Below are positions 12,591 through 63,496 of a stretch of 64,000 bases of DNA, in pieces. Below the pieces are notes generated by a model. The model ran no database searches, was not told where the DNA came from, and worked only from the letters and a program-made list of their open reading frames with translations. The DNA comes from Deltaproteobacteria bacterium UBA1386 (GTDB lineage Bacteria; Desulfobacterota; Syntrophorhabdia; Syntrophorhabdales; Syntrophorhabdaceae), in assembly GCA_002305765.1 (NCBI GenBank), contig DBQU01000062.1, positions 27,859 to 91,858 of the forward strand, read 5' to 3'. How positions within the stretch are numbered: position 1 is the first letter of the stretch; the number at the start of each line of letters is the position of its first letter. The translations under genes were made by a program, and so were the position numbers.

Positions 12591-12626
12591 TGAATCGCTT
12601 GAGCCGTTTGAATCGCTTGAGCCGTT
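12591..12626. repeat. Perfect tandem duplication of the 18-mer TGAATCGCTTGAGCCGTT (two 9-nt subunits each); family A arm without a partner
   Basis: Read directly: 12591..12608 equals 12609..12626. Same 9-nt unit type (CTTGARYSG) as the arms at 19.8, 30.9 and 42.6 kb. Confidence 0.9.
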
Positions 12627-12661
12627 TCAAGACAAGAAAAAAGACAATACTTTACCTTGCT

Positions 12662-14629
12662 TTATATGCCGGGTTCCCTGGCCTCCAGGAACTCTTTCAA
12701 TGCCTCGGCGGAGGTGAGGGGTTCGTAGCAGGTGGTGGCGATGCAGGGGATGATGATGTTATCGCCGGGGTCGCCCCAGGTGATGCACGTATAAGGGTGA
12801 TAAGAGAAGAGGGAGGCTTCGGCAAGTTCCGACACAGCCCCGGCGCGGAGCTCGAGCTTTACCATCCGGTAGAAGGCCTCGAGGGCGCAAAGACAATAGG
12901 CTCCATGGATCGCCATAGGGGATGCCTCGGACGAAAAGGCTTCGAGGGCCTTCGCAGCGTGGTCGCGGTACATGTCGTCGCCTGATATCGCCGCGAGCTT
13001 GATGAGCACAAGGATGGCAACGGCGTTAGGTGATGGTCTCGGTATGTCCTCGATGCCCTTGAGGCGGATCCCTATCACCTCTTCTTCGGTGTCGAAGAAC
13101 CCCGCCCCCGCGCTGTCCCGGAAACGGTCGATGCAGATGTCCATGAGAACCTTTGCCTCGTCGAGGTATTTCCTCTCACCCGTCGCCTCGTAGACGGAGA
13201 TGAGACCATCGCAGAAGTACGCGTAATCCTCGAGGAAGGCCTTCACACCCTCGGAGTGATAGAGTTCTCCGTCCCGCAGGTTCACGTCCAGGATCCTCGC
13301 AAGCGCGAGGCGGGCGCGGTCAAGCACCGTCCTGTCACCAAATGTCCTGTAAGCTTTGCAGTAGGCCGATATCATCATGCCGTTGAGGGACGTGTACAGC
13401 GCGGTGTCGATGAAGGGTTTCTGTCTCTTCTCACGCTCGGCGAGAAGCTTCTGTTTTCCGCGCGCTATAACCTCCCGCACCGTCGGTGCATCCATGCCCG
13501 TTTTGCGGGCGATGTCTTCGACGGACCCGCGGACGGAGAGCACCACCTTCCGTGGGTCGTGGTGCACGGCGTTGCCCGGGTCAAAGAGATACATCGACAG
13601 CACCCGGTGCTCCTCTTCACCCAGCACCCGCCTGAGGTCCTCATCGGTCCAGGTGAAATACCCCCCTTCATCGTCAGGCGTCACGTCGGCGTCCATGCTG
13701 GCGTAGAAACCGCCCTGCGGGTCCGAGAGCTCCTTGTCGACAAAGGCGATGATGCCCCGGGCCGTGTCCTTGAGGTACGGGTCTCCGAAGAGCCGGTAGG
13801 CGTCGCAATAATTCCTGAGAAGCCATGCGTTGTCGTCCGCCATCTTCTCGAAATGAGGCACAGCCCATGCACTGTCCGTCGAATAGCGGTGAAAACCGCC
13901 GCCGATCTGGTCGTGGAAACCGCCGTTCGCCATGGCCGAAAGAGTCTTCTTCAGCATGAGGACAAGGCTTTCGTCGCCCGTGAAGAAACACCTTCCCAGC
14001 AGGAACTCGATGGCACCGGGCATGGCAAATTTCGGGGCGCTTCCGAATCCTCCGTTGGTGCTGTCGAAAACGGCAAGCATCGCTGCTGCCGCCTCATCGA
14101 TGAGCATGCCCGAGAGGGGCCTCGATGCCTTCCTCTCTTTCCTGACGGCGTCAAGGAACATCCCTCCCTGCTCTTCGATCTCCTCCCTCTTCTCCTTGTA
14201 GTAGAGGCTGATCGCCAGGAGGACCGTCCCGAAGGCCGGGATGCCGAAGCGCTCGACGGGCGGGAAATAGGTGCCCCCGAAAAAGGGTTTCTTGTCGGGG
14301 GTCAGAAAGACACTGAGCGGCCATCCTCCGCCCTGCCCCATGGCGGCCACCGCCTGCTGGTAGCGGCGGTCGATGTCGGGCCGCTCGTCGCGATCGAGCT
14401 TGACGGCCACAAAGTGCTCGTTAAGGATCGCCGCCACGGTGTCATCTTCGAAGCTTTCCTTCGCCATTACATGGCACCAGTGGCACCAGATAGCCCCCGA
14501 GCTCAGAAAGACGGGCTTGTTCTCCCTCGCCGCCCTGTCAAAGGCTTCCTGCGACCAGGGCTGCCAGTCGATCTTTTGATGAGCGGCATGCCTGAGATAC
14601 GCCGACCGTTCCTGGGCCAGTCTGTTCAT
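12662..14629 (-). CDS. Thioredoxin-domain protein of the YyaL/DUF255 type with (alpha/alpha)6 epimerase-like C-terminal domain
   Basis: ORF to 14647; preferred start ATG 14629 (MNRLAQERSAYL) preceded by GGAGGA. Motif KPVFLSSGAIWCHWCHVMAKESFED. Confidence 0.8.
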   Translation of the reverse strand: MNRLAQERSAYLRHAAHQKIDWQPWSQEAFDRAARENKPVFLSSGAIWCHWCHVMAKESFEDDTVAAILNEHFVAVKLDRDERPDIDRRYQQAVAAMGQGGGWPLSVFLTPDKKPFFGGTYFPPVERFGIPAFGTVLLAISLYYKEKREEIEEQGGMFLDAVRKERKASRPLSGMLIDEAAAAMLAVFDSTNGGFGSAPKFAMPGAIEFLLGRCFFTGDESLVLMLKKTLSAMANGGFHDQIGGGFHRYSTDSAWAVPHFEKMADDNAWLLRNYCDAYRLFGDPYLKDTARGIIAFVDKELSDPQGGFYASMDADVTPDDEGGYFTWTDEDLRRVLGEEEHRVLSMYLFDPGNAVHHDPRKVVLSVRGSVEDIARKTGMDAPTVREVIARGKQKLLAEREKRQKPFIDTALYTSLNGMMISAYCKAYRTFGDRTVLDRARLALARILDVNLRDGELYHSEGVKAFLEDYAYFCDGLISVYEATGERKYLDEAKVLMDICIDRFRDSAGAGFFDTEEEVIGIRLKGIEDIPRPSPNAVAILVLIKLAAISGDDMYRDHAAKALEAFSSEASPMAIHGAYCLCALEAFYRMVKLELRAGAVSELAEASLFSYHPYTCITWGDPGDNIIIPCIATTCYEPLTSAEALKEFLEAREPGI

Positions 14630-14787
14630 CGGTCCTCCATCGTGCAAGCGCTAAAGACGCATCAAGCAATATCAGCACGAAAACGTGCGATGTCAACGAC
14701 GATGCGCCGCACATCATTGTTCCCTTGCCTGGTGACCTTTCCTGGGGCATAATAGACATATACAACAACACGACGGGGAGCGGCACC

Positions 14788-16162: not shown

Positions 16163-16209
16163 GGCCAATTCGCTCTTGTCTGGTTATTGGGATTTGATCA
16201 TTGGTTATT
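16163..16209. repeat. Family D arm (single copy) overlapping the ahbD stop codon
   Basis: 16172..16209 matches 18381..18418 at 32 of 38 positions (hand alignment). Both lie at the 3' end of a radical-SAM ahb gene. Confidence 0.7.
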
Positions 16210-17217
16210 CTTTTCCCTGTACGAACACAGCGGCTCTTCCTGGAGGTAATCTCCCGTCTCCTCGTAGGCGCGGGCGCGGCAGCCGCCGCAGATGCGGACA
16301 TAGCGGCAGGTCGAGCATTTTCCACGATATAACGTGAGATCGCGCAGGCGCCGGAACACCTCGGAGCCCTCCCAGACAGTCCTCACACCGTCCCTTCGCA
16401 CATCGCCCGAATCGATCTCAAGGTAACCGCAGGGCTGGGCGATGCCTCGGTGAGAGATGAACATGAAGCTCTTCCCGGCAAGGCACCCTGCGCTTTTCGG
16501 CGTCTCCCCATCTTCCTTCACGATGCGGTAATAGTGCGGGGCACAGGTCACCTTCATCTCCAGCTCGCCCCTCTTTTCAATTGCCCGAAGCCGGTGGAGC
16601 ACCTCCTCATAGGCCTCGGCGGAGAGTTCCTTTCCCTTGAGGCCTGTTCCCCTGCCGACAGGCACGAGGAGAAAGACGTGCCAGGCGACAGCCCCGAGGG
16701 ACCTGACCAACGCATAGATATCGTCGAGGTCATCGACATTGAGCCTCGTCACCGTGGTATTTATCTGGAAAGGCAGACCCGTCAGCTTGAGGGTCCCTGC
16801 CGCCCCGGTCACGGCCCGGAAGGACCCGTCGACACCGCGAAACTTGTCGTGACCGGTTCCGTCCCTTGCGTCGATGCTGAGGCTCACCCTCTTTATACCC
16901 GAGGCCTCGAGCCTTTTCGCCACCCCTTCGTCGACAAGGGTACCGTTCACGGCGATGACCATTCTCAATCCCCTGTCATTGCCATATTCGATGATGTCGA
17001 AGATATCGCGTCTCATCAGCGGTTCCCCGCCGGTCAAAATGACCGTCGGCTCCGAGAAGGACAGGATGTCATCAATGACGGCCTTGCACTCTTCCGTTGA
17101 GAGCTCGCCCTCGTAGGGACCCGACGCCGCTGACGCGCGGCAGTGCATGCAGGAAAGGTTGCAGTTGCGGGTCAGCTCCCAGGCGACCATCCTCAAAGGG
17201 TATGTTCTTTCGCCCAT
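16198..17217 (-). CDS. ahbD: Radical SAM/SPASM haem-biosynthesis enzyme (NirJ-like), probable haem synthase AhbD
   Basis: CxxxCxxC motif in WELTRNCNLSCMHC. C-terminal SPASM-like Cys cluster (CSTCRYVRICGGCRARAY). Flanks hemB, as I recall for the Desulfovibrio ahbD-hemB-ahbC arrangement. The AhbC versus AhbD assignment rests on length only. Confidence 0.55.
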   Translation of the reverse strand: MGERTYPLRMVAWELTRNCNLSCMHCRASAASGPYEGELSTEECKAVIDDILSFSEPTVILTGGEPLMRRDIFDIIEYGNDRGLRMVIAVNGTLVDEGVAKRLEASGIKRVSLSIDARDGTGHDKFRGVDGSFRAVTGAAGTLKLTGLPFQINTTVTRLNVDDLDDIYALVRSLGAVAWHVFLLVPVGRGTGLKGKELSAEAYEEVLHRLRAIEKRGELEMKVTCAPHYYRIVKEDGETPKSAGCLAGKSFMFISHRGIAQPCGYLEIDSGDVRRDGVRTVWEGSEVFRRLRDLTLYRGKCSTCRYVRICGGCRARAYEETGDYLQEEPLCSYREKNNQ

Positions 17218-18179
17218 GTGCCGATCTCTTTCGCGAAGTAGGTGATGATGATGTCCGCTCCGGCGCGCCGGATGCTCGTCGTGGATTCGATGACCGCCCT
17301 TTTCAGATCGAGGGAGCCCTGCGCCGCGGCGAACCTTATCATGGAATACTCGCCGCTGACGCTGTACGCGGCGAGAGGTATGTTGAACCTTTCTCTCGCC
17401 TGACTCAAGACGTCAAGGTAGAAGAGCGCCGGCTTCACTATGATTATGTCCGCCCCCTCCTCAATGTCGAGAGCGATCTCCCGCAGGGCCTCACGGCTGT
17501 TGGGGGGATCCATCTGGTAGGACTTTCGGTCACCGAACTGCGGGGCCGACTCCGCCGCCTCCCGGAAGGGGCCGTAGAGACAGGATGCGTACTTCGCGGC
17601 ATAGCTCATTACGGGCACATTGTAGTCCCCGTGAAGGTCGATCATCTCCCTGATGGCACGCACACGACCGTCCATCATGTCCGAAGGCGCGACCATGTCG
17701 GCACCGGCCACGACATGACTGAGCGCGCTTTTCGCGAGGAGCTTCAAGGTCTCGTCGTTGTCGACATAGCCGTCCTTCACGACGCCGCAGTGGCCGTGAT
17801 TCGTGTACTCGCACATGCAGACGTCGGTGATGACGAGGATGTCTTCGCCGAAGCGCGCCTTGATGGCCCGCACCGCCTGTTGGACGATACCGTTCTTGTC
17901 GTAGGCACCGCTGCCCGTTTCGTCCTTCTTCTCGGGTATGCCGAAGACGAGGATGGCAGGCACACCCGCCTCAAGAACCTTCTCCACCTCGCCGAGCACC
18001 CCCTCGACGGAGAACTGGTTGATCCCGGGCATGGCGTCGATGGGAACCTCGCGTTCGCTCATCTCCTTCACAAAGACGGGATAGACGAGGCAATCGGGCG
18101 AGAGCGTGGTTTCGCGGACCATGTTCCTCAGTTTCTCGTTCTTCCTCATTCTCCTCGGCCGGTACGTCGGGTAACGCAT
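17193..18179 (-). CDS. hemB: Porphobilinogen synthase (delta-aminolevulinate dehydratase)
   Basis: 328 aa. N-terminus MRYPTYRPRRMRKNEKLRNMVRET and a Cys-rich metal site (DVCMCEYTNHGHCG). Strong SD (TAAGGAGG) upstream. Confidence 0.95.
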   Translation of the reverse strand: MRYPTYRPRRMRKNEKLRNMVRETTLSPDCLVYPVFVKEMSEREVPIDAMPGINQFSVEGVLGEVEKVLEAGVPAILVFGIPEKKDETGSGAYDKNGIVQQAVRAIKARFGEDILVITDVCMCEYTNHGHCGVVKDGYVDNDETLKLLAKSALSHVVAGADMVAPSDMMDGRVRAIREMIDLHGDYNVPVMSYAAKYASCLYGPFREAAESAPQFGDRKSYQMDPPNSREALREIALDIEEGADIIIVKPALFYLDVLSQARERFNIPLAAYSVSGEYSMIRFAAAQGSLDLKRAVIESTTSIRRAGADIIITYFAKEIGTWAKEHTL

Positions 18180-18195
18180 GAAGCCTCCTTAGAAG

Positions 18196-18420
18196 ATAAT
18201 GACCAATGACCACATTCCAGCAACCAGGGAAAGAAAACCACCAAGAGACCAGGCGCCAGTGACCACGAACTGATAATGACAAATCTACCAGATTCCAGCC
18301 GACCAGACAACAGTCACGTGCGTGGCCAATGGGTCGTCTCGTCTGTCGTTTCTGGCTGGAGATTGATTATTGCTCGATTGGCTATTGTTTGGTTATTTGA
18401 ATTTGATCATTGATCATTAT
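18196..18420. repeat. Family D element: about 225-nt imperfect palindrome between ahbC and hemB
   Basis: Outer arms 18196..18228 and 18388..18420 are reverse complements at 25 of 33 positions. Arms contain AATGAYC-type short repeats and the centre is at CACGTG (about 18318). The left half is A/C-rich and the right half G/T-rich. Confidence 0.75.
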
Positions 18421-19601
18421 CGTTTTATCTCTTCATCCGTCAGATAACACTGCGGGTCCTCGGCCCAGAGGTTGCCCGTTGCCGCTTCGGCGCGGACGCG
18501 GAAGTTGCCGGCACAGACGTCGAGCCATCTGCACGCTGCGCAGCGGCCGACCACGTACTTCTTCTTTTCCTTGAGCTTCGCCATGACCGGGTCCGCAAGG
18601 TCCTCCCAGATCGTGCTGAAAGACCGCTCCCGGACGTTGCCGAAGCTGTGGTGCCTCCAGAACTGGTCCGCGTGGACATTTCCCTTTTCATCGATGCAGG
18701 CGATGCCGACGCCCGAAGAGTTCCCTTCGTTCATCCTGAGCAGTTCCAACACCTCCGCCGCCCTTCGCGGGTCCTCCCTGAGAAGCCTCAGATACACGTA
18801 TGGACCGTCGGCGTGGTTGTCGACGGTAAGGACCTCCGGCGATCCTCCCCTGGCAAAGAGGGCCTTCGTCCTGTCCATGATGAGGTCGACGACGCGGCGC
18901 GTCTCATCATGGGAGAGGTCCTCGCCGATGAGCTTCGATCCTCGCCCCGCGTACACAAGGTGATAGAAACAGACACGTTGAACGTTCTCTTCCTCTATGA
19001 GATCGAAGATCTTCGGTACCTCGCCGGCATTTCTCTTGTTGATCGTGAACCTGAGGCCCACCTTGATACCCGCGTCCCTCGCATTCCTGATGCCCTCCAT
19101 TGCACGCGCGAAGGCACCCTCGACCCCGCGGAAGGCGTCGTTGATCTCCGTCAGACCGTCGAGGCTGACACCGATGTAGGACAGCGAACACCGGGCGAAC
19201 ACCCGGGCCTTCTCCTTCGTGATGAGGGTACCGTTCGTCGATATGACGGCCCTGACGCCCTTTTTCACCGCGTGGTCGATGAGCTCCGGAAGGTCCTCCC
19301 TCAGCACCGGCTCCCCTCCGGAGAAGAGAATGACGGGCACACGGAAACGAGCCAGGTCATCGATGAGCGCTTTGCCCTCGTCCGTCGACAACTCGTCGCC
19401 CCTGTAATCTTCCCCCTCGGCAAAAGCGTAGCAGTGAACGCACCTGAGATTACAGCGCTTCGTTGTGTTCCACACAACGACGGGTCTCTTGTCCTTTGAG
19501 AACTGCAGAAGGTGTGACGGCAAAAGCGAAGAATCCCTGCCGTACCTCAGGGGGTCGGAGGCCTCTACGGCCCCGCAGTAGAGTTTGGATATGCCGATCA
19601 T
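18417..19601 (-). CDS. ahbC: Radical SAM/SPASM haem-biosynthesis enzyme (NirJ-like), probable Fe-coproporphyrin synthase AhbC
   Basis: ORF to 19655; preferred start ATG 19601 (MIGISKLYCGAVEASDPLRYG). Motif NTTKRCNLRCVHC and a C-terminal Cys cluster (CAACRWLDVCAGNF). Confidence 0.55.
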   Translation of the reverse strand: MIGISKLYCGAVEASDPLRYGRDSSLLPSHLLQFSKDKRPVVVWNTTKRCNLRCVHCYAFAEGEDYRGDELSTDEGKALIDDLARFRVPVILFSGGEPVLREDLPELIDHAVKKGVRAVISTNGTLITKEKARVFARCSLSYIGVSLDGLTEINDAFRGVEGAFARAMEGIRNARDAGIKVGLRFTINKRNAGEVPKIFDLIEEENVQRVCFYHLVYAGRGSKLIGEDLSHDETRRVVDLIMDRTKALFARGGSPEVLTVDNHADGPYVYLRLLREDPRRAAEVLELLRMNEGNSSGVGIACIDEKGNVHADQFWRHHSFGNVRERSFSTIWEDLADPVMAKLKEKKKYVVGRCAACRWLDVCAGNFRVRAEAATGNLWAEDPQCYLTDEEIKR

Positions 19602-19674
19602 GGTGCCCTTATTGTGAGCCGAAACGTGAAAAAAGTCAACGCCGTTGTCCCTCACCCTGTAAGGGCCCGACTTA

Positions 19675-19703
19675 TTGAAATGCGACTTTTTCTGTGATAT
19701 GCT
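19675..19703 (+). promoter_or_regulatory. Candidate promoter of tRNA-Pro
   Basis: TTGAAA (19675..19680), 17-nt spacer, TGa-TATGCT extended -10 (19695..19703). The mature tRNA 5' end lies 10 nt downstream. Confidence 0.45.
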
Positions 19704-19713
19704 GGTGGCTGAT

Positions 19714-19792
19714 CGGGGCGTGGCGCAGTATGGTTCAGCGCGCTTGCCTTGGGCGCAAGAGGCCGCTGGTTCAAATCCAGTCGCCCCGACCA
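19714..19792 (+). tRNA. tRNA-Pro (anticodon TGG)
   Basis: Hand-folded cloverleaf: acceptor CGGGGCG/CGCCCCG, anticodon stem CTTGC/GCAAG with loop CTTGGGC, T-loop TTCAAAT, encoded CCA. Confidence 0.9.
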
Positions 19793-19797
19793 GAAAA

Positions 19798-19930
19798 CCG
19801 GCTTAAACCGCTTGAACCGCTTGAACGTCCGAGGCGAATGGAGGCTTTTCACGCGGTGTTCGGTTATATCACGCGATTCTTTCCTTTTTCTTACCCTCAA
19901 ACGCTCAAGCGGTTCAAGCGATTCAAGCCG
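19798..19930. repeat. Family A hairpin element (30-nt arms of 9-nt units, about 70-nt core) at a convergent junction
   Basis: 19799..19828 and 19901..19930 are reverse complements at 27 of 30 positions. Arms are tandem CTTGAACCG-type units. Confidence 0.9.
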
Positions 19931-19935
19931 TCTTT

Positions 19936-20589
19936 CTAGTCTATCCACCTCACGAAGTTCTCAAGGTCCTCACGGGGAGAGGTGAACTCGTTGATAGGGC
20001 TTGCCAGGTCGGGATAGCCCAGAGCGGCTCCGATCACCACGTCCTTGTTGTCGGGGATGTTGAGCATGTCCTTGATATCATCCTCATAGGCGTTGATAAG
20101 CCCGATGGGGCAGGTGGAAAGGCCGAAGTTGTGGGCGATCAGGACAAAATATCCGAGGGCGATCCCGATGTCCACGAGACGGGCCTCGGAAAAGGCGTTG
20201 TCGAGGCAAAAAATGACTGCCGACGGCGCGCCGTAGAAGTTGCAGCTGCCCTCGTTGATAAACCGGTTGAACTCCTGGCCCATCTTCTCCAGGTAGGGGT
20301 TCATCAGTATGAAGGATTCAGCTCCCCTCTTGTGAAACTCAGCTGAAAGGGGCTTCACGTTCCCGGGACTGCAGGAGATCTGCTTTTCACGGTAGAGCTT
20401 CACCAGTCTGCGGCTCAGCCGTTCCTTCTCCTCACCCATGACAACGATGAATTCCCAGGGCTGGAGATTGATGGCCGACGGCGCGCGGACCACCAGGCTC
20501 AGTATCTCCTCTATCTGCTGTCTAGAGACCGCATCGGGCTTGAAGGCCCGTGCGCTCTTCCTCACTTTAATGGCTTCGATGAGATCCAT
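19936..20589 (-). CDS. Nitroreductase family protein
   Basis: ORF to 20625; preferred start ATG 20589 (MDLIEAIKVRKSARAF) with AGGAGG 9 nt upstream. Classic nitroreductase N-terminal block (RKSARAF...APSAINLQPW). Confidence 0.85.
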   Translation of the reverse strand: MDLIEAIKVRKSARAFKPDAVSRQQIEEILSLVVRAPSAINLQPWEFIVVMGEEKERLSRRLVKLYREKQISCSPGNVKPLSAEFHKRGAESFILMNPYLEKMGQEFNRFINEGSCNFYGAPSAVIFCLDNAFSEARLVDIGIALGYFVLIAHNFGLSTCPIGLINAYEDDIKDMLNIPDNKDVVIGAALGYPDLASPINEFTSPREDLENFVRWID

Positions 20590-29422: not shown

Positions 29423-30946
29423 ATGCGAAAATTCTTCATTATTTTCATTGCACTTTTCGTGCTCGTTTCGTGCTCCTCGAAGACCCCTAAGAAGGCCGAG
29501 AACCCCGTCGACCTCTACGTTGCCGGCGTGAACCTGATGAACACCAAGAAATATGACAAGGCCGTGGAAAAGTTCAAGGCCATCCGCGAACAGTATCCCT
29601 TCGACCCCATGGCCCTCGTCGCCGCCGTCAAGCTCGGCGATACCTACTTCCTGAAGAAGGACTATGTCCTGGCCGCCGGCACCTACGAGGACTATTTCAA
29701 GGCCCACCCGGATGAAGAGAACATCCCCTACGTCCTCTTCCGTCTCGGCGAATGCTACGAGAAGCTTTCGCCCAGCATCGACCGCGATCAGGCGAACACG
29801 GTGAAAGGCATCGAAAGGATAACCTACCTGAGGAACCGGTACCCCACGAGCTCCTACGCAAAGGAGTCGGAATCGAGATTGAAAAGGTTCATACAGAAGC
29901 TGGCTGACCGGGAGCTCTACGTGGGCGAATTCTATGTCAGGACCGCCCAGTACAACGCATGCGTGATCAGGCTCGAGGACATGCTGAAAAGATATCCGGA
30001 GTCAAAGAACATGGACAAGGCCCTTTTCTACCTTGTGACCGCCCATCGGGAACTGGGAAACCAGGGCAAGAGCGACGAGTACCTCGAACGGCTGCGCAGA
30101 GAATACCCGAAAAGCATCTATTCGCGCTCCACCGTAAGGCAGCGTAAGACCCTCAAGATGGTGCGCGAGGAGGAGAAGAACGCGACGTCACCCGGTACCG
30201 CCGCAGCGGCGCCCCGGGCGGCCGCCTCCGATCCTGCCAGGGCCTCCATGCAGGCAACGGGCATACCCATGGCCAGCGCCACGACCTCCACTGTCCCTGC
30301 TGCTGAAGCAACAACAGCAACACCGCAGTACAGGGAAGGAAAGAGGAAAGAGATAGATCTCAGGCCCCCCGAGGCTGAGCCCGCCGCACAGCTATCCTCC
30401 GAGCCGCCGAAGGTGGACGCTGTGCAGACGGCGAAACACGCCGAAACCCCCGGCGCCACACGTCCCGAAACCAAAGAAGAGGGCAAGACGGCCCCGGAGG
30501 ACAAGCCAAAGGCAAGGGGCGTGGACAAGGCGCTCGGCTTTCTTGACCAGAAGAAACCCATAGATATCGTCTCCGATACAATGGAAGGCTTCGACAAGGA
30601 AAAATATGTCTTCTTCAAGGGCAGCGTCGTGGCCAAACAGGATGACCTCTACATCTATTCCGATACGATGGAGGCCTTCATGAGCGCCGACACCAACGAG
30701 ATAGAGAAGGCGAACGCGAAGGGCAACGTGAGGATCATCAAGCAGAACAGGACGGCAACCTGCAAAGAGGCCTTCTTCGACAACATCAAGGGCGAGATCG
30801 TCCTCAAGGGAAACGCCGTCGTGACGTCGGACAAGGACAAGGTCGAAGGCGATATCGTCACATACTACGTAAACGAAGACCGCGCCGTGGTCACCGCGGA
30901 AAAAAGCAAGAAAGCAAAGGTGACCATATACCCCCAACAGAAATAA
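29423..30946 (+). CDS. Lipoprotein fusing a BamD/YfiO-like TPR domain, a low-complexity linker and an LptA/OstA-N-like domain
   Basis: Lipobox-like LVSCSS. The N-terminal ~240 aa are BamD-like (KYDKAVEKFKAIREQYPFDP...ADRELYVGEFYVRTAQYNACVIRLEDMLKRYPES). An Ala/Thr/Pro/Glu-rich linker follows. The C-terminal ~130 aa are LptA-like (IDIVSDTMEGF...FKGSVVAKQDDLYIYSDTMEAF...KGNVRI...LKGNAVVTSDKDKVEGDIVTYYVNED). Confidence 0.75.
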   Translation: MRKFFIIFIALFVLVSCSSKTPKKAENPVDLYVAGVNLMNTKKYDKAVEKFKAIREQYPFDPMALVAAVKLGDTYFLKKDYVLAAGTYEDYFKAHPDEENIPYVLFRLGECYEKLSPSIDRDQANTVKGIERITYLRNRYPTSSYAKESESRLKRFIQKLADRELYVGEFYVRTAQYNACVIRLEDMLKRYPESKNMDKALFYLVTAHRELGNQGKSDEYLERLRREYPKSIYSRSTVRQRKTLKMVREEEKNATSPGTAAAAPRAAASDPARASMQATGIPMASATTSTVPAAEATTATPQYREGKRKEIDLRPPEAEPAAQLSSEPPKVDAVQTAKHAETPGATRPETKEEGKTAPEDKPKARGVDKALGFLDQKKPIDIVSDTMEGFDKEKYVFFKGSVVAKQDDLYIYSDTMEAFMSADTNEIEKANAKGNVRIIKQNRTATCKEAFFDNIKGEIVLKGNAVVTSDKDKVEGDIVTYYVNEDRAVVTAEKSKKAKVTIYPQQK

Positions 30947-30947
30947 A

Positions 30948-31234
30948 GACGGCTTAAATAGCTTGAGCCGCTTGAATGGCTTGAAAGTGAAAGGCAAGAA
31001 CCTTTGTTCGCCGACAACGGTTCTTGCCTTTTGTTCTAACGCTCAACAGGCTGTTGACAAAGTGATTTCTGAAGACGATTCGTGTTCTTTCGTCATTCCG
31101 GCGAAGGCCGGAATCCAGGAAAAACGAGGGGTTAGAGAAACCTCTGGATTCCGGCCTTCGCCGGAATGACGTAGAAAATGGGTTTATCAACAGCCTGTCA
31201 AACGACTCAAGCCATTCAAGCGGCTCAAGCCGTC
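30948..31234. repeat. Family A element with three nested inverted-repeat layers
   Basis: Outer arms of 9-nt units lie at 30948..30989 and 31199..31234. Middle arms are AACAGGCTGTTGAYAAA-type. The inner layer is a perfect 28-bp inverted repeat, CGTCATTCCGGCGAAGGCCGGAATCCAG (31091..31118) paired with 31144..31171. Confidence 0.9.
30991..31037 (+). terminator. Intrinsic terminator after the BamD::LptA gene
   Basis: 12-bp stem AAGGCAAGAACC / GGTTCTTGCCTT (30991..31002 and 31019..31030) followed by TTGTTCT. Confidence 0.6.
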
Positions 31235-34005: not shown

Positions 34006-34020
34006 AACATTTCCCGTTTT
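33981..34020 (+). terminator. Perfect 14-bp hairpin spanning the last rlmI codons and stop, followed by CCGTTTT
   Basis: GAAATGTTTCATCC (33981..33994) is the exact reverse complement of GGATGAAACATTTC (34000..34013). Confidence 0.55.
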
Positions 34021-34110
34021 AAGTGATTGAGTTTTAAGTGTTAAGTCAAAGGCAGGAGCAGAAAGGATTTCATCTTTTACTTAAAACTTAAAACCTAAAA
34101 CTTAAAACCG
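34015..34110. repeat. Family B hairpin element (arms of TTTTAAGT-type 8-nt units) at a convergent junction
   Basis: 34015..34046 and 34079..34110 are imperfect reverse complements (GTTTTAAGT repeats versus ACTTAAAAC repeats) around a ~32-nt core. Confidence 0.85.
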
Positions 34111-34114
34111 TCTT

Positions 34115-34879
34115 TTACAGGTTTACCGCCACTCCCTTCCCCTTCAAATACTCCTTCACCTGGCGGACCGTGAAGGTGCGGAAGTGGAAGACCGATGCGG
34201 CCAGCAGAATGTCCGCGCCACCACGCACGACACCTTCGTAGAAGTGCTCCAGGGTTCCCGCTCCGCCCGAGGCGATCACGGGCAGGGTCACCGCGTCGGA
34301 TATGGCCTTCGTGAACTCGAGGTCGTATCCTTTCAGGGTCCCGTCGCCGTCCATGCTCGTCGGCAGGATGGTACCGGCACCGAGTTCCTGGCAGCGCTTC
34401 GCCCATTCCACGGCGTCCTTGCCGACGGGGGTCGTACCGCCCGCCACGACAAGCTCGAAACCCGAGGGCATTGCCCCGTTACGCCTCGCATCGACGGCGA
34501 TGACGATCCTCCCGCCTCCGAACCTGTCGGCGGCTTCCTTCACCAAGGTCGGGTCCTTCACGGCGGCGCTGTTCATGGACACCTTGTCGGCCCCGGCCTT
34601 GAGGACGAGCTCGATGTCATCCGTCGTGTTGATGCCGCCTCCCACAGTGAGGGGAATGGTGATCACCGAGGAGACCTCCTTGACCCATTCCAGCCGGGTC
34701 TTGCGGTTTTCGACGGTGGCCGCAATGTCGAGCATCGCGAGTTCATCCGCCCCTTCCTTCTGGTAATAAGCCGCATTCTCGACGGGATCTCCGGCATCCT
34801 TGAGGTCAACAAAATGGACACCTTTCACAACGCGTCCATTTTTCATATCGAGACATGGCATGATCTTCACGGTCTTCAT
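34115..34879 (-). CDS. hisF: Imidazole glycerol phosphate synthase cyclase subunit HisF (no other his genes adjacent)
   Basis: ORF to 34894; preferred start ATG 34879 with AGGAG 7 nt upstream. Blocks IMPCLDMKNGRVVKG, TVGGGI, SGGAG. Confidence 0.9.
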   Translation of the reverse strand: MKTVKIMPCLDMKNGRVVKGVHFVDLKDAGDPVENAAYYQKEGADELAMLDIAATVENRKTRLEWVKEVSSVITIPLTVGGGINTTDDIELVLKAGADKVSMNSAAVKDPTLVKEAADRFGGGRIVIAVDARRNGAMPSGFELVVAGGTTPVGKDAVEWAKRCQELGAGTILPTSMDGDGTLKGYDLEFTKAISDAVTLPVIASGGAGTLEHFYEGVVRGGADILLAASVFHFRTFTVRQVKEYLKGKGVAVNL

Positions 34880-36785: not shown

Positions 36786-36877
36786 AGGCGGCTTTAAGGG
36801 GGTTACAGGGTAACGGGGTGAGCCGCTGGAAGGGATGCGGGCATACGGGCTTTCTTCCGTGTGCCCCTTCTTTTGGC

Positions 36878-42164: not shown

Positions 42165-42641
42165 ATGGAGAAACCAATGACAAGACTGAAGACAATATGC
42201 GCCATAACACTGTGTCTCGTTTTCTTAGGGGCCTCTGCAACAATAGCCTTCGCGAAGAATGAAAAGGTCGCGACACCGAAGGAGTACGGGGCATACATCA
42301 AGACGAGCAAGGGACTCATCAGGCTCCTGCCCAACATCGTCTTCGATGAGGACGGGGTCATCTTCGTGGAGTCCAACAATCCCGCCCATTTTTTCCTCAA
42401 GGATTTCCAGTACTTCGTCCTCTACGGCAAATACGAAATGAGCGTGCTCACCGTGAACCCCATGGGCTTCTATCAGTCGTCGGCACTCGGCAAACCACGC
42501 TTCGCCTTCGGCAAGGACATCGAGATCGACGTCAAACCCCAGGGCAAAGACATGTACATCATCAAACCCAAGGGGCTGCTCGGCAGGGGATACTACAGCA
42601 TCTGGATCAACGACACCGCATGGGATTTCATGCTCGACTGA
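42165..42641 (+). CDS. Secreted hypothetical protein
   Basis: 158 aa; signal peptide (ICAITLCLVFLGASATIAFA). No family recognised. Confidence 0.6.
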   Translation: MEKPMTRLKTICAITLCLVFLGASATIAFAKNEKVATPKEYGAYIKTSKGLIRLLPNIVFDEDGVIFVESNNPAHFFLKDFQYFVLYGKYEMSVLTVNPMGFYQSSALGKPRFAFGKDIEIDVKPQGKDMYIIKPKGLLGRGYYSIWINDTAWDFMLD

Positions 42642-42785
42642 CACCGGCTTGAACCGCTTGAATGGCTTGAGCCGTTTGAGCGTTGAAAGACAAAAAAAAT
42701 GACCCCCGTTGTGCTCGGCCACACAGGGGTCGTTCTTTTTCTAACGTTCAAGCGGCTCAAGCCATTCAAGCGGTTTAAGCCGGTG
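42642..42785. repeat. Family A hairpin element (about 45-nt arms of 9-nt units) enclosing a bidirectional terminator
   Basis: 42642..42684 and 42743..42785 are reverse complements at 40 of 43 positions. Confidence 0.9.
42691..42740. terminator. Bidirectional intrinsic terminator (A-run, GC hairpin, T-run)
   Basis: CAAAAAAAAT, then GACCCC...GGGGTC (42701..42731, with inner TGTG/CACA pairing), then GTTCTTTTT. Confidence 0.65.
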
Positions 42786-42790
42786 TTTTT

Positions 42791-42865
42791 TGGAGGCGGC
42801 ATCCGGATTTGAACCGGAGAATAACGGTTTTGCAGACCGTCGCCTTACCACTTGGCTATGCCGCC
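42791..42865 (-). tRNA. tRNA-Cys (anticodon GCA)
   Basis: The reverse complement folds as a cloverleaf: acceptor GGCGGCA/TGCCGCC, anticodon loop CTGCAAA, T-loop TTCAAAT, encoded CCA. Confidence 0.9.
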
Positions 42866-60040: not shown

Positions 60041-60748
60041 ATGAATTTTCTTCAGAGGGTCATTATAGAGCCTTTCGAGAGCTCTTACGAGAAGTTCCTC
60101 ACATTCATGCCCAATTTCCTCACCTCCCTGGCGCTTCTCATTGTGGGCATCGTCCTTGCTGCGGTCCTCAGGATGGTCTTTCTAAGGATCTTCCGGGCCA
60201 TAAACCTCGACAAGGCGGCCCAACGCCTCGGGCTTTTCGACATGCTCCTCAAAGGCGGGATCAGGGACTCCCTTTCGGCCTTCATCGCAAGGATAATCGG
60301 ATGGCTCGTCATCTTCACCTTCGCCGTCGTGGCGGTGCAGACGCTCAAGATACCCACCGTCGAGCACCTCCTGGAGCGTTTCTTCCTCTATCTCCCCAAT
60401 GTCTTCACGGCGGCGGTGATCCTTCTCTTCGGCTATCTTTTCAGCAACTTTTTCGGACGCGCCGCGCTCATAGCGTCGGTCAACGCGGGAATACAAAGGG
60501 CCGGCCTCGTCGGCAGGCTGGTCAAGATCACCGTCTTCATCCTGTCCGCCACAATGGCGATGGAACAGCTCGGGATCGGCCGTGATACCGTGCTCATAGC
60601 CTTTGCCATTATCTTCGGAGGCATTGTCCTGGCCCTCGCCATCGCCTTCGGCTTCGGCGGAAGGGACATCGCCAGGACCTATCTGCAAAGGACCGTGGGG
60701 AAAGAGAAGGAGAATGAAGAGAACCGGGACGACATCAATCCGCTGTAG
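60041..60748 (+). CDS. Membrane protein with repeated conserved TM-helix modules (mechanosensitive-channel-associated type)
   Basis: 235 aa; repeated pattern of TM helix plus short amphipathic segment (LALLIVGIVLAAVLRMVF...; LVIFTFAVVAVQTLKIP...; FTAAVILLFGYLFSNFFG...; ITVFILSATMAMEQLGIG...; FGGIVLALAIAFGFGGRD). The family assignment is from memory. Confidence 0.55.
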   Translation: MNFLQRVIIEPFESSYEKFLTFMPNFLTSLALLIVGIVLAAVLRMVFLRIFRAINLDKAAQRLGLFDMLLKGGIRDSLSAFIARIIGWLVIFTFAVVAVQTLKIPTVEHLLERFFLYLPNVFTAAVILLFGYLFSNFFGRAALIASVNAGIQRAGLVGRLVKITVFILSATMAMEQLGIGRDTVLIAFAIIFGGIVLALAIAFGFGGRDIARTYLQRTVGKEKENEENRDDINPL

Positions 60749-60785
60749 AGTTTTAAGTTGTCAGGTTTTAGGTTTTAAGTTGAAG
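60749..60785. repeat. Family B arm without a partner
   Basis: AGTTTTAAGTTGTCAGGTTTTAGGTTTTAAGTTGAAG immediately follows the stop codon. It resembles the arms at 34015..34110. Confidence 0.8.
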
Positions 60786-60884: not shown

Positions 60885-61919
60885 ATGATCGAGTTCAGGA
60901 TGGTGGAATCGGAAAGTACTTTCCTTGACCCGCGAAAGGGCTTCGAGCCCACTACCGTACGTTTCCAGGTGCGTGTCGATCCGTTAACGGGCAGGACCTG
61001 TCATTTTTCTCATTTCGGCGCCGTCAAAGCCCAGAGACTCGATCTGGCCGGGTATCACGATCCCGCCGTAAAGGGTTTCTGTCCCTTCTGCGCCGAACAT
61101 CGCGAAAGGACAACGCCGAGATTCACGCCCGATGTCGTTCCCGAGGGGAGGCTGGAGAACGGGGAGGCGCTTCTTATACCCAATCTATTCCCCTATGACA
61201 TCCACAGCGGTGTCGTCGTCATGACCGACGATCACGTCGTCGGCCTGAAGGACTTCACCCGAAAGAGGCTCGATGATGCCTTTTCCCTGGGCATCGACTT
61301 CCTGCGCCGCATAGCGGATCTCGACGGTTCGTTGCCCTATCACCTCATGACATGGAACTACATGCCCCCTTCGGGGGGAGGCCTCGTTCATCCCCATCAG
61401 CAATACTTCGCCACCGCATGCCCCGGCAACCAGTTCATGGATGAGCTGTCCGCATCACGACGCTTCGCGGAACGCCACAGGCAGAATTACTGGTATGCCC
61501 TCGCGAGACAGGAGGCGACAGGCAACGAGCGGTATATCGCACGGATCGGTTCGGGACACTGGATCGCTTCTTTCGTCTCTCTCGGGCTGCTCGGAGAGAT
61601 CATGTGCATCTTTCCCGACGTCTTTTCCCTCCAGGACCTCACCGACGACGATATCGACGACCTCGTTTCCGGACTCGAGCGCGTCTTCCGGTATTTCGAG
61701 GAAGCGGGGGTCTTCAGCTTCAACGCGTCGCTCTGTCTCGGCCCCCGCGACCAGGAGCACTTCAGCTGCTACTTCCGCATCGTCCCCCGGACGTTCCTCA
61801 ACACGCGTGACTTTGCCCCGGACCTCAATTTCTTCCAGGCCATCCTCTCCGAACCCATCTGCGTGGTCCTCCCGGAAGACCTCTGCAGGGAGGTAAAGCC
61901 CTACTTCAACCAGGGATAG
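60885..61919 (+). CDS. GalT-type (HIT superfamily, HxHxQ) nucleotidyl-hexose-1-phosphate transferase/phosphorylase-like protein
   Basis: 344 aa; Zn-type CPFC motif (GFCPFCAEH) and the active-site histidine motif GLVHPHQQYF. Confidence 0.65.
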   Translation: MIEFRMVESESTFLDPRKGFEPTTVRFQVRVDPLTGRTCHFSHFGAVKAQRLDLAGYHDPAVKGFCPFCAEHRERTTPRFTPDVVPEGRLENGEALLIPNLFPYDIHSGVVVMTDDHVVGLKDFTRKRLDDAFSLGIDFLRRIADLDGSLPYHLMTWNYMPPSGGGLVHPHQQYFATACPGNQFMDELSASRRFAERHRQNYWYALARQEATGNERYIARIGSGHWIASFVSLGLLGEIMCIFPDVFSLQDLTDDDIDDLVSGLERVFRYFEEAGVFSFNASLCLGPRDQEHFSCYFRIVPRTFLNTRDFAPDLNFFQAILSEPICVVLPEDLCREVKPYFNQG

Positions 61920-61924
61920 TTGCA

Positions 61925-62133
61925 GGTTCAAGGGTTCAAAGACATTTCAAGAGTTCAAGGGCTCAAGAGTAAAAGAAGAAAACAACGGACGCTTTTGGCG
62001 TGTAAGCACGATTCGAGGGAAGGACCGCGAAGGGGGATCGGTTGTCAATACTATTCGCGTACCGGCCAAAGGCATCCGGCGCCTTTTGGTCTTCTACTCT
62101 TGAACTCTTGAACTTTTGAACCCTTGAACTTTC
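61925..62133. repeat. Family C hairpin element, gene-free copy (arms of GTTCAAGRG-type units, core contains a ~70-nt conserved module)
   Basis: The left arm 61925..61972 and right arm 62094..62133 are imperfect reverse complements. The core 62022..62094 is about 75 percent identical to 63394..63464. Confidence 0.85.
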
Positions 62134-62173
62134 TTTTGCTTGCATGCCCCTCCTTCTATCCTATAGTTCCTGT

Positions 62174-62746
62174 ATGGATATCATCGAACTGGTCACGAAG
62201 AACAGGAGCCACCGGCGGTTTCAGGAGAGCGAACCCATAACCATGGAACAGCTGGAGGGCCTCGTGGAGCTTGCCCGTCTTTCGCCGTCGGCCGCGAATC
62301 TCCAGCCTCTCAAGTTCGTTCTCTCCAACGACCCCGCCCGCAACGCGTCCATTTTCTCCTGTCTTGCGTGGGAGGATTATATCAGGAACTCCCGCGGGCC
62401 TGCCGAAGGCCGTCGGCCGTCGGGATACATCGTCGTCCTCGGTGATACCACCATCACGAAGGACTTCTCGTGCAACCACGGGATCGCCGCGCAGAGCATA
62501 CTCCTCGGCGCCACGGAGATGGGTCTGGGCGGATACATGTTCGCCGGGGTGGATAAGGCCAGGCTTGCGACTCTTCTCCGTATACCCCGGGAATACGAGA
62601 TACTGCTCGTCATCGCCCTGGGCGTTCCCAGGGAACGTGTCGTCGTCACGGAGGCCAGGGACGGCAACATCGCCTATTGGCGCGACATCAACAAGGTCCA
62701 CCACGTTCCTAAACGCCCCCTGGCGGAGATCATACTGGATCTTTGA
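62174..62746 (+). CDS. Nitroreductase family protein (paralogue 1)
   Basis: ORF from 62144; preferred ATG 62174 (MDIIELVTKNRSHRRF). Roughly two-thirds identical by eye to the downstream paralogue. Confidence 0.85.
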   Translation: MDIIELVTKNRSHRRFQESEPITMEQLEGLVELARLSPSAANLQPLKFVLSNDPARNASIFSCLAWEDYIRNSRGPAEGRRPSGYIVVLGDTTITKDFSCNHGIAAQSILLGATEMGLGGYMFAGVDKARLATLLRIPREYEILLVIALGVPRERVVVTEARDGNIAYWRDINKVHHVPKRPLAEIILDL

Positions 62747-62755
62747 AAAAATGTT

Positions 62756-62793
62756 CCAGGTTCAAGGGTTCCAGAGTTTCAGGTTTTTGAATC
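62756..62793. repeat. Family C left arm between the two nitroreductase genes
   Basis: CCAGGTTCAAGGGTTCCAGAGTTTCAGG is the near reverse complement of the right arm at 63465..63496. Confidence 0.8.
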
Positions 62794-62818
62794 TTACGTC
62801 ACAGCGATGGGAGATGGC

Positions 62819-63391
62819 ATGACTGTGCTGGAGCTTGTTACGAAGAGCAGGAGTTACCGGAGGTTTCACGAGGACAGGACGATCAGTTTGCAGCAGCTGA
62901 AGGGGCTTGTCGAGCTTGCCCGCCTTTCGCCCTCGGCGAGGAACCTGCAGCCCTTGAAGTTCATCCTGTCCCATGACTCCCGGAAGAACGCCGCCATATT
63001 CTCGTGCCTTGCATGGGCAGGCTATCTCAAGGACTGGCCGGGCCCCGAGGAAGGCGAAAGGCCTTCCGCCTATATCATTATCCTCGGGGACGGGTCCCTC
63101 ACAAAGGACTTCGGCTGCGACCACGGGATCGCCGCCCAGAGCATTTTGCTGGGAGCGACGGAGACGGGACTCGGCGGATGTATACTCGGCAATATCCAGA
63201 GGGACCGCCTGAAAGCCCTTCTGAAGATACCAGATCGGTACGAGATCCTCCTTGTCGTTGCCCTCGGAGCACCCAAAGAAGAGGTCATCATCGACGAGGT
63301 GAAGGAGGGGGACATCAAGTACTGGCGCGACGCCGACAAAGTCCACCACGTGCCGAAACGCTCCCGGGGGGAACTGATACTCAAGATTTGA
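62819..63391 (+). CDS. Nitroreductase family protein (paralogue 2)
   Basis: ORF from 62807; probable ATG 62819 (MTVLELVTKSRSYRRF). Shares blocks LVELARLSPSA.NLQPLKF, IFSCLAW, HGIAAQSILLGATE.GLGG, YWRD..KVHHVPKR with paralogue 1. Confidence 0.85.
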   Translation: MTVLELVTKSRSYRRFHEDRTISLQQLKGLVELARLSPSARNLQPLKFILSHDSRKNAAIFSCLAWAGYLKDWPGPEEGERPSAYIIILGDGSLTKDFGCDHGIAAQSILLGATETGLGGCILGNIQRDRLKALLKIPDRYEILLVVALGAPKEEVIIDEVKEGDIKYWRDADKVHHVPKRSRGELILKI

Positions 63392-63393
63392 AA

Positions 63394-63496
63394 GACCGCG
63401 AAGGGGGGTCGGCTGTCAAGGGAATACGTACACCGGCCGAAGGCGCCGGTGCCCTTTTTGTCTTTTACTCTTGAACTCTGGAGCTCTTGAACCTTC
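63394..63496. repeat. Family C conserved module plus right arm
   Basis: The module 63394..63464 is homologous to 62022..62094. The right arm 63465..63496 (TTACTCTTGAACTCTGGAGCTCTTGAACCTTC) pairs with 62756..62793. Confidence 0.85.
63431..63466 (+). terminator. Intrinsic terminator inside the family C module
   Basis: 7-bp stem CACCGGC / GCCGGTG (63431..63437 and 63445..63451) followed by CCCTTTTTGTCTTTT. Confidence 0.6.

Follow-up and report, generated by a model that had tools for sequence, protein, structure and literature searches.

Contig DBQU01000062.1 of the deltaproteobacterial assembly UBA1386 (GCA_002305765.1) carries arrays of short tandem units at its gene ends, many of them paired as inverted arms on either side of a variable core. 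We describe these elements in a 64,000-nt stretch of the contig (positions 27,859–91,858; hereafter the window, to whose numbering the coordinates refer unless a locus is named) and at the equivalent junctions of related genomes. The genes of the window were mapped by rough calls based on the GC content of third codon positions, supported by the Pfam tables of the same contig, together with three tRNAs. The RlmI and AhbC proteins of the contig are 87–93% identical to proteins of Syntrophorhabdus metagenome-assembled genomes (MAGs), and by this resemblance the source organism is a species of Syntrophorhabdus.

Arrays of short tandem units at gene ends

With Tandem Repeats Finder (TRF), arrays with a period of 7–9 nt and at least 2.5 copies were located in the window at 12599 (A1), 19796 and 19905 (A2), 30951 and 31198 (A3), and 42647 and 42746 (A4) for unit family A, at 34019 and 34079 (B1) and 60749 (B2) for family B, and at 61925 and 62096 (C1) and 63467 (C3) for family C. 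Family D left only two-copy traces, at 18198 and 18403. The C2 arm and the D arrays (Table 1) are more degenerate and lie under the TRF thresholds, and are visible by sequence reading. The D arrays are backed by cleaner copies in relatives, namely AATGACC x4 and AATTGGT x9 in L080 and an orthologous D element in L118 (the relatives are Syntrophorhabdus-type MAGs and six 21-kb syntenic loci; L-numbers denote sampled DNA loci of other contigs or genomes). An earlier note on this DNA had listed eleven sites with arms of short units, and TRF and sequence reading together find such arms at all eleven.

Sequence reading gives a GCTTGAACC-like unit of 9 nt for family A, a GTTTTAAG(T)-like or TTTTAAGT unit with a period of 7–8 nt for family B, a GTTCAAGR-like unit of 8 nt for family C and an AATGAYC/AATAACC-like unit of 7 nt for family D. 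The period that the earlier note gave for A thus stands, and its values for B (8 nt) and C (9–10 nt) are replaced by these. Paired arrays are reverse complements of one another. When an array is defined by a period of 7–10 nt and at least 2.5 copies, TRF counts 13 arrays in the window (2.7–5 copies each, period 7–9 nt), whereas 50 dinucleotide-preserving shuffles yield 0.82 on average and never more than 3. All 13 lie in the non-coding ∼8–9% of the window, which holds six paired elements.

The arrays follow a positional rule. They occupy seven of the eight convergent junctions, none of the eight divergent junctions and five of the 47 co-directional ones (5 of 15 where the co-directional gap is at least 40 nt). 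The distance from stop codon to arm has a median of ∼5 nt over 36 pairs in Syntrophorhabdus DNA, and the stop codon itself is overlapped by D1, D2, the 3′ arm of A3 and a GTTCTAC array in L120. Single arms obey the rule of paired ones: those of the 5′ type stand behind a stop (B2, C2 and the array at 36798) and the one of the 3′ type stands ahead of the next gene (A1).

Table 1. Arrays, core hairpins and nested element of the window
Feature	Position	Strand	Units or motifs	Setting and evidence
A1, single family-A arm	12589-12633		(TTTGAATCG CTTGAGCCG)x2.2	TRF and sequence reading; orthologous array in L118; between minus-strand genes, past the T-run behind the DsbH-like stop (12662), with the DUF502 promoter just downstream
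D1, single array	16182-16210	-	AATRAYC-type units	Overlaps ahbD stop (16198-16200); convergent junction
D2 3′ arm	18195-18228	-	GGTCATT units on the minus strand	Finishes just ahead of the hemB ribosome-binding site
D2 5′ arm (transcription sense)	18361-18421	-	AATGATC/AATAACC units x∼8	Begins over ahbC stop (18417-18419)
A2 5′ arm	19796-19827		GGCTTAAACC GCTTGAACC GCTTGAACG	Begins 4 nt past tRNA-Pro 3′ end (tRNA-Pro 19714-19792, +)
A2 3′ arm	19902-19936		CGCTCAAGC GGTTCAAGC GATTCAAGC CG, then GTCTTTC end	Abuts nitroreductase stop (19936, minus)
A3 5′ arm	30947-30987		Opens with AGACGG	Straight after TAA (30944-30946) of the LptD_N/TPR gene
A3 core hairpin, intrinsic-terminator-like	30993-31034	+	GGCAAGAACC..GGTTCTTGCC, then TTTTG	Orthologous to the L115 core hairpin
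Element nested in A3, like a transposable element of the miniature inverted-repeat kind (MITE)	31043-31201		Terminal inverted repeats CAGGCTGTTGACAAA/TTTATCAACAGCCTG, inner palindrome GTCATTCCGGCGAAGGCCGGAATCCAG	Flanked by a TCAA duplication
A3 3′ arm	31203-31234		CGACTCAAGC CATTCAAGC GGCTCAAGC CGTC	Overlaps final codons and stop (31225-31227) of the minus-strand 4HBT gene
B1 5′ arm	34016-34046		GTTTTAAGT-type units	10 nt past RlmI stop
B1 3′ arm	34079-34115		ACTTAAA x4.3, then CCGTCTTTT end	Abuts stop of HisA/F-like gene (34115, minus)
Additional single array	36798-36824	+	GGGGTAAC-like x3: GGGGGTTAC AGGGTAAC GGGGTGAGCC	Directly past the stop of the methyl-accepting chemotaxis protein gene
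A4 5′ arm	42642-42689			Begins 1 nt past TGA (42639-42641) of a 158-aa gene
A4 core, bidirectional terminator-like hairpin	42701-42739	+	A-run, GACCCC..GGGGTC, T-run	
A4 3′ arm	42735-42791		Plus CCGGTG TTTTTT end	Abuts tRNA-Cys 3′ end (tRNA-Cys 42791-42865, -)
B2, single 5′-type arm	60749-60783	+		Immediately past TAG (60746-60748); co-directional genes on either side
C1 5′ arm	61925-61969		GTTCAAGR 8-nt units	5 nt past TAG stop
C1 3′ arm	62096-62129		ACTCTTGA x4.4	14 nt ahead of nitroreductase-1 start
C2, degenerate 5′-type C arm	62753-62783	+		Past nitroreductase-1 stop; has a 15-mer in common with the beginning of the C1 5′ arm
C3 core and 3′ arm	63392-63493		Small hairpin; terminator 63431-63451 with T-run; arm 63467-63493	Homology to C1, namely to the 3′ half of its core and to its 3′ arm

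Family D requires a correction. The copy at 16163–16210, described in the earlier note as two-armed and lying between co-directional genes, is single-armed and stands at a convergent junction (peptidase S9 on the plus strand, AhbD on the minus strand), where it overlaps the stop codon. A two-armed D copy between co-directional genes does exist, but it is the element at 18195–18421, which reaches from ahbC to hemB. These genes form part of an alternative haem biosynthesis cluster (16198–19655, minus strand) that consists of an ahbC-like radical SAM gene, hemB/ALAD and an ahbD-like radical SAM/SPASM gene. D2 splits ahbC from hemB, which are genes of a tight operon in relatives.

The array at 36798–36824, absent from the earlier list, lies upstream of a terminator hairpin (36839–36866) and is kept in L115. 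Beside A1, on the minus strand between 12540 and 12585, a putative sigma-70-like promoter (TTGACT-17 nt-TAGTAT) adjoins the array, and the same arrangement is seen in L118 and L119. Between the end of its −10 box and the DUF502 ATG lie 9 nt, a distance that suggests a leaderless or near-leaderless mRNA. The family-C elements accompany two nitroreductase paralogues in tandem (62144–62746 and 62807–63391, 62% identical). The whole nitroreductase-2 gene lies between the 5′ arm of C2 and the core and 3′ arm of C3, so that a gene sits inside one arm pair.

Pairing, turnover and descent

The two arms of an element show ∼89% Watson–Crick complementarity over ∼35 nt. In minimum-free-energy folds, arm pairs with arm in every two-armed element and on both strands, with z-scores against shuffled sequences from −2.7 (D2) to −18.5 (A4, with a stem of ∼50 bp), again on both strands. 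Arms of one site match each other better than same-family arms taken from different sites (22.5 versus 21.3 of 24 positions, permutation p<5e-5). This excess indicates that arms are kept complementary, either by selection or by templating within the palindrome. The anatomy is thus that of a long imperfect palindrome with arms of 3–9 copies of a 7–10-nt unit around a site-specific core.

Family-A arms have conserved ends, GACGG at the outer and AACGTT at the inner one. The sequence that flanks the arrays is rich in A on the left (5.8 of 14 nt versus 3.5 in the background) and in T on the right (5.7 versus 3.5). Reading of the flanks further shows that (A)AGAC(G/C)G ... C(G/C)GTCT(T) terminates many paired arms of several unrelated unit families. 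A slightly looser form of this motif (GAC[CG]G or AGA[CT]G on the left, C[CG]GTC or C[AG]TCT on the right) is present in 18 left flanks (14%) and 22 right flanks (17%) of 127 arrays, against 4.7% of random positions.

Family-A cores range from 25 to 190 nt and are unrelated in sequence and length; no homology was found among the cores of family-A copies. In many cores a GC hairpin is preceded by an A-run and followed by a T-run, which agrees with the earlier view that the core often contains an ordinary terminator. Hairpins that have the features of intrinsic terminators (a GC-rich stem of 5–15 bp, a loop of 3–10 nt and a U-tract) are present in the cores of A3, A4 and C3. On average, sequence on the 3′ side of the outer arm stems is T-rich, but their loops measure 25–270 nt and some stems lack a T-tract. 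A simple terminator scan picks up the core hairpins only, since its loop limit of 8 nt leaves out the arm stems. At gathering and E-value thresholds, Rfam matched only the three tRNAs of the window and contains no family for the arrays; below threshold, A4 scored 33 bits against the hairpin model of a plant miRNA, whose gathering score is 140.

A scan for three family-A units, with one genome per GTDB species, returned at least 108 loci, and ∼40 of the 108 among the matches listed belong to five Syntrophorhabdus-type MAGs. Together with the six syntenic loci, these Syntrophorhabdus loci amount to 425 kb and contain 127 arrays, 36 inverted pairs and at least 15 unit families, including GGTTTCA, GGGTTAT, AACCGTTAG, GTCCTATAA, CGGCTAA, CGTAAGG, GTTCTAC and ACCTGTG; the 566 kb from other taxa contain three inverted pairs. 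The proposal that several unit families share one architecture is therefore borne out well beyond the four families first noticed. Region 6153–6952 of L055, from a Verrucomicrobiae MAG, has an open reading frame (ORF) of ∼440 bp between inverted arrays (x28 and x13) of the 9-mer GAGCGGCTT; the ORF is a candidate, by eye, for a four-helix-bundle protein of the ‘23S rRNA intervening-sequence’ type. The same MAG contains a hairpin of ATGACCG units that resembles family D (L037).

Comparison of orthologous junctions reveals rapid replacement of the units. Between the LptD_N/TPR and 4HBT genes, family A surrounds a terminator in the window and the orthologous terminator in a species at 87% identity. 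The same junction bears a hairpin of AATAGGTCC units in a species at 80% and CGGCTAA/CCGTTAG arrays in one at 74%. Past RlmI, the TTTTAAGT units of the window are replaced by ACGGGCA-type units in one relative and by CGTAAGG/CCTTACG in another, and past the nitroreductase gene, where the window has family A, relatives have family A, GTTTCARN or CCGTTCAA/CGTGGAA. Where a relative has kept the family, the order and number of units still differ, often between the two arms of a site.

The earlier note had suggested comparing relatives for presence and absence, and D2 provides such a case. The 230-bp element fills the ahbC–hemB spacer in the window and in the species at 93% identity (L118), and is absent from two others (L119 and L120), whose spacers measure 10–40 nt. 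No convincing target-site duplication emerged when the filled junctions (window, L118) were compared with the empty ones (L119, L120). At this junction L120 has only a short hairpin, AAAAGACCGG..GTCCTTTT (11183–11222), whose ends, AAGAC and GTC(T/C)TT, are those of the large elements; it may represent an ‘empty’ or ancestral form. Thus, across five related species, the architecture persists at orthologous junctions and the unit does not, with elements gained or lost. At the strain level no copy-number polymorphism was found: six assemblies of the same contig (including MAG GCA_040769405.1) are 100% identical wherever each covers the window between 19.4 and 40.9 kb, and strain comparison therefore gave no information on unit number.

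The orientation of units is fixed within a family. Among the matches listed, CTTGAAC lies on the 5′ arm of family A in 17 of 17 cases. A metagenome scan for (TTGAACYY)n, the family-C pattern, returned at least 120 loci, with 55 inverted pairs among the matches listed. In the GTTCAAGG family of metagenomes the polarity is opposite to that of A, with GTTCAAG on the 5′ arm in a ratio of ∼27:1 by a count made by eye among the matches listed, and other unit families co-occur on contigs of this family, also among the matches listed. Such constancy points to descent from founder copies, not to arrays that grew independently site by site. All of A, B and C contain CTT(G/A)AA(C)/GTT(C/T)AAG, located on the 5′ arm in A and on the 3′ arm in B and C. 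Thus, to call the families unrelated in sequence, as had been done, was too strong, since A, B and C have a CTT(G/A)AA(C) core in common, in opposed polarity. The companion claim, that simple duplication of a single element is insufficient to explain the design, holds, because the family-A cores are unrelated; the same design occurs with at least 15 units in relatives.

The MITE-like sequence nested in A3 (terminal inverted repeats CAGGCTGTTGAYAAA/TTRTCAACAGCCTG, inner palindrome GTCATTCCGGCGAAGGCCGGAATCCAG) is found at five independent sites, the others being L118 9587–9684, L087 108–258, L097 3740 and L113 25–38. It always lies within a family-A unit (5/5), which it cuts as GCTTGA|, with a 4-bp TTGA/TCAA duplication, and is a small target-specific mobile element.

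Relation to described repeat classes

The arrays are a new lineage example of a class already described, that of paired inverted arrays of short tandem units. They show its features: head-to-tail units in the range of 5–11 nt and in about three or more copies, close pairs on opposite strands, the capacity to form stem-loops, a position near stop codons, and unit number and sequence that vary among close relatives at the same junction. The earlier note could not place them among REP (repetitive extragenic palindromic) sequences, BIMEs (bacterial interspersed mosaic elements), MITEs or CRISPR (short palindromic repeats, clustered and regularly interspaced). [quoted passage not shown]

Xanthomonas genomes each contain ∼190 arrays of the heptamer GGGAATC, ∼90% of them intergenic and typically of ∼4 copies (Rehm 2015, PLoS One 10:e0144275; PMC4692102). 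Per genome, 70–75 oppositely oriented pairs lie on opposite strands and are capable of forming stem-loops; the arrays are found within 50 bp of stop codons in the sense orientation or upstream of ORFs in the antisense orientation, are rare at divergent junctions, vary among species at the same junction and are mostly transcribed (PMC4692102). A counterpart heptamer, GGGGA(C/T)T, occurs in Nostoc, and GGGAATC oligonucleotides form G-quadruplexes (Rehm 2015, PMC4692102). The Syntrophorhabdus arrays resemble these in their short tandem units, opposite-strand pairs, positional rule and variation between species. However, one G-rich heptamer dominates in Xanthomonas, whereas the Syntrophorhabdus units are of 7–10 nt and not G-rich, form several families per genome, are swapped between species and commonly surround a terminator.

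In G. metallireducens, ‘class 1–3 global regulator binding sites’ consist of 3–5 tandem repeats of 7–9 nt (GTTGCTYN, TCTCCGTS[Y] and MTYCTGA) (Aklujkar 2009, BMC Microbiol 9:109; PMC2700814). They form opposite-strand pairs with variable spacing, the classes coexist and are absent from the sister species, and ISGme8/9 insert at a fixed distance next to class-1 sites (PMC2700814). Tandem units of similar length, opposite-strand pairing, several coexisting classes and targeting by a mobile element (ISGme8/9 there, the MITE in family A here) are common to both systems, and both hosts are anaerobes formerly called ‘deltaproteobacterial’. The unit sequences differ, and binding of integration host factor (IHF) or HU to the G. 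metallireducens sites is a guess, the authors' own interpretation (PMC2700814). The STRR sequences of cyanobacteria are intergenic tandem 7-bp units, capable of forming hairpins, as between hupS and hupL, for which roles in transcript stability or translational coupling have been proposed (PMC2670836). They differ in being mostly single arrays, used as fingerprinting targets, and a paired design around terminators has not been emphasised. The STRR2 unit is said to be TTGGTCA (attributed to Mazel, 1990) and would then be the reverse complement of the unit of family D (TGACCAA/AATGACC). More generally, long simple sequence repeats (SSRs) with units of 5–11 nt, especially heptamers, are over-represented in scattered bacterial lineages (PMC4060949, PMC4679880, citing Mrazek 2007).

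REPs of Escherichia coli located in 3′ untranslated regions (UTRs) act both as terminators and as stabilisers (bioRxiv 10.64898/2026.03.23.713779), and REPs are preferred targets of insertion sequences (IS) (PMC1525189). According to PMC2817692, a REP is a single imperfect palindrome of 20–40 nt with a GT[AG]G head, moved by a REP-flanked REP-associated tyrosine transposase (RAYT; an IS200/IS605-like Y1 transposase); REPs and their RAYTs are species-specific, and BIMEs bind IHF, gyrase and Pol I. The Syntrophorhabdus elements are likewise high-copy, species-specific extragenic palindromes at 3′ ends and convergent junctions, are targeted by a mobile element and, like the REPs, BIMEs and REPINs (paired REP elements) of gamma- and betaproteobacteria, show species-specific versions at orthologous junctions. 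They differ from REPs in that their arms are tandem arrays that end in AAGAC/GTCTT, with long unrelated spacers and without a GTAG head. Neither the window nor the Pfam tables for the genes of the six syntenic loci show a RAYT or transposase, whole genomes not having been scanned. An autonomous version, with same-family arms 0.7–4 kb apart around an ORF, was looked for, and only ordinary genes were found between such arms (nitroreductase in the case of C2–C3). As MITEs the arrays were rejected. Their arms are inverted, but copies have unrelated cores, and no duplication marks the filled versus empty D2 site. CRISPR arrays, with repeats of 24–48 nt and unique spacers of like length, are likewise set aside, as the 7–10-nt units run head to tail without spacers and the window has no cas genes.

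Inverted arms of short iterated units with a variable middle are also a feature of the foldback transposons of Drosophila and of subterminal-repeat transposons such as CACTA and Ac/Ds; these are eukaryotic, have far longer arms and come with known transposases and target-site duplications. The uptake sequences of Neisseria and Haemophilus are over-represented motifs that form inverted pairs in terminator stems downstream of genes. They differ in having one motif per arm and a link to competence, and nothing suggests DNA uptake in Syntrophorhabdus.

Possible function and competing explanations

Our preferred reading, to which we give an even chance, is that the elements are lineage-specific dispersed hairpin repeats that, like REPs, act as outer stems of compound terminators or as stabilisers of 3′ ends. 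When a transcript reaches the second arm, the arms would close into a stem of 30–50 bp. This stem could serve as an outer, often bidirectional terminator or block to read-through, as a REP does in a 3′ UTR, and as a barrier against 3′ exonucleases, and would insulate neighbouring transcription units, convergent ones above all. The tandem units would arise and be reshaped by replication slippage, being too long for efficient mismatch repair, and the match between arms could be maintained by selection for pairing, by template switching within the palindrome, or by both, the copies of a family descending from founder copies.

Several points weigh against this function. Termination and stabilisation are read from the anatomy only. 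The cores of A3, A4 and C3 already hold a good terminator, so that most transcripts should stop before the second arm. The loops of 25–270 nt far exceed those of canonical intrinsic terminators, there is no T-tract behind some 3′ arms (A3, L091, L032), and unequal arms (for example, 3 versus 9 units) are unnecessary for a stem. At co-directional junctions, arm mismatches on the transcribed strand comprise 16 G.U and 20 A.C, a small sample without an excess of G.U; the arms thus bear no RNA-specific signature, and a palindrome acting at the DNA level would fit equally. Moreover, a terminator role leaves the presence of same-unit copies within one genome unexplained.

The dispersal of copies, their fixed polarity and the conservation of arm ends would be natural in non-autonomous mobile DNA of a REPIN-, MITE- or foldback-like kind, its units bound by a transposase or HUH enzyme whose gene lies elsewhere in the genome; the elements would then be selfish and have no host function. 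We consider this possible, if doubtful. It would account for the presence of D2 in some relatives and its absence from others, for different families at the same orthologous junction and a terminal motif common to families, and for species-specific families, as in REPs and their RAYTs (PMC2817692). The lack of arrays at divergent (promoter) junctions would also be expected if gene 3′ ends were the only permissive places. Yet the cores are unrelated within a family, which argues that whole elements are not what is copied; D2 bears no recognisable target-site duplication, the loci searched encode no transposase or RAYT, arms flank only ordinary genes, and the arrays are identical across six independent assemblies. 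A role for the double-stranded DNA itself, as sites for abundant DNA-bending or topology proteins (IHF/HU, gyrase or another ‘global regulator’) with one array loading protein on each side of the junction, would be in keeping with the lack of a G.U bias and with the apparent IHF consensus core, TCAA-N4-TT, in the family-A 3′ arm. Positive supercoils accumulate at convergent junctions, which we also count in its favour. Such a role was proposed for the equivalent pairs of G. metallireducens (Aklujkar 2009; PMC2700814), and the proteins bound by BIMEs are of this kind (PMC2817692). We nevertheless judge it unlikely: one genome has at least 4–5 families and the genus at least 15, with periods of 7–10 nt and units that are swapped at orthologous junctions, so that many fast-evolving cognate proteins would be needed, polarity differs between families with the same core heptamer (A versus C), and independent sites have no need of arms that co-vary.

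Arms that co-vary, and a unit number that differs between arms and between orthologues, could also be a neutral by-product of mutation, in which terminator stems grow in place by slippage and template switching copies the growth to the other arm, with neither function nor mobility. Short ‘empty’ AAAGAC..GTCCTTTT hairpins exist at orthologous sites, as in L120, and SSRs whose units reach 4 nt or more are missed by mismatch repair, heptamers being the commonest long SSRs (PMC4060949 and PMC4679880, citing Mrazek 2007). This process predicts units specific to each site and both polarities, whereas one unit, one polarity and conserved ends recur at four window sites and at dozens in relatives, and the arrays are stable across the six assemblies; we rate it as distinctly improbable. 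Formation of G-quadruplexes or i-motifs, as proposed for the GGGNATC repeats of Xanthomonas and Nostoc, has even less to recommend it and is most improbable. GGGAATC oligonucleotides do form such structures (PMC4692102), and the array at 36798–36824 has three G-tracts, but the units of A–D (GCTTGAACC, TTTTAAGT, GTTCAAGR and AATGAYC) have none, and polarity is independent of G content. Judged on sequence, the idea is refuted for families A–D, which lack the at least four runs of three or more G that define a G-quadruplex motif, and without G-tracts in the Syntrophorhabdus units the idea put forward for Xanthomonas cannot be general. Finally, small genes for periodic peptides or degenerate CRISPR arrays have a negligible probability. 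ORFs do traverse some arrays (19694–19939 and 42593–42802), but unit lengths of 7 and 8 nt are not divisible by three, the inverted pairs lie on both strands, and the ORF over A2 overlaps tRNA-Pro; a CRISPR array is contradicted by head-to-tail units without spacers and by the lack of cas genes in the window. The anatomy of the arrays refutes both the coding and the CRISPR readings.

Paired arrays came to notice separately in cyanobacteria, in Xanthomonas and in Geobacter, each time with a different explanation tied to the sequence (fingerprinting target, G-quadruplex or IHF/HU site), and none has a demonstrated function. In Syntrophorhabdus, architecture is conserved rather than unit sequence, the arrays mark the ends of transcription units, and turnover between species is fast, which together argue for a common, sequence-independent explanation; the Syntrophorhabdus junctions form a compact set for testing one. 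It is conceivable, if improbable, that the arrays are the footprint of a widespread mechanism that builds or spreads tandem-unit hairpins at gene 3′ ends, such as a new hairpin-recognising mobilising enzyme or palindrome-extending repair. If so, it would account for the same architecture in Thermodesulfobacteriota, Xanthomonas, cyanobacteria, Verrucomicrobiota and Nitrospirota, as well as for the unit swaps, the fixed polarity and the AAGAC..GTCTT ends across families.

The arrays also have practical consequences, as they create false small ORFs and extended gene calls. In agreement with the earlier warning that the arms yield periodic ORFs that could be mistaken for genes, spurious ORFs run through them at 19694–19939 (+), 42593–42802 (−) and 12590–12985 (+). 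Some gene calls of relatives beside array junctions are longer than their orthologues: RlmI has 411 aa (P0013) versus 390, and LptD_N 560 aa (L117, 6273–7955) versus 507. In P0013 the stop of RlmI is the original one and the extra length lies at the 5′ end; the call thus does not reflect read-through into the array. Furthermore, the arrays are hotspots of MITE insertion in MAGs of an important syntrophic degrader of aromatic compounds. At the edge of the MITE in A3 (31069–31074), two independent short-read contigs (L002 and L005) come to an end, which indicates that these repeats break assemblies.

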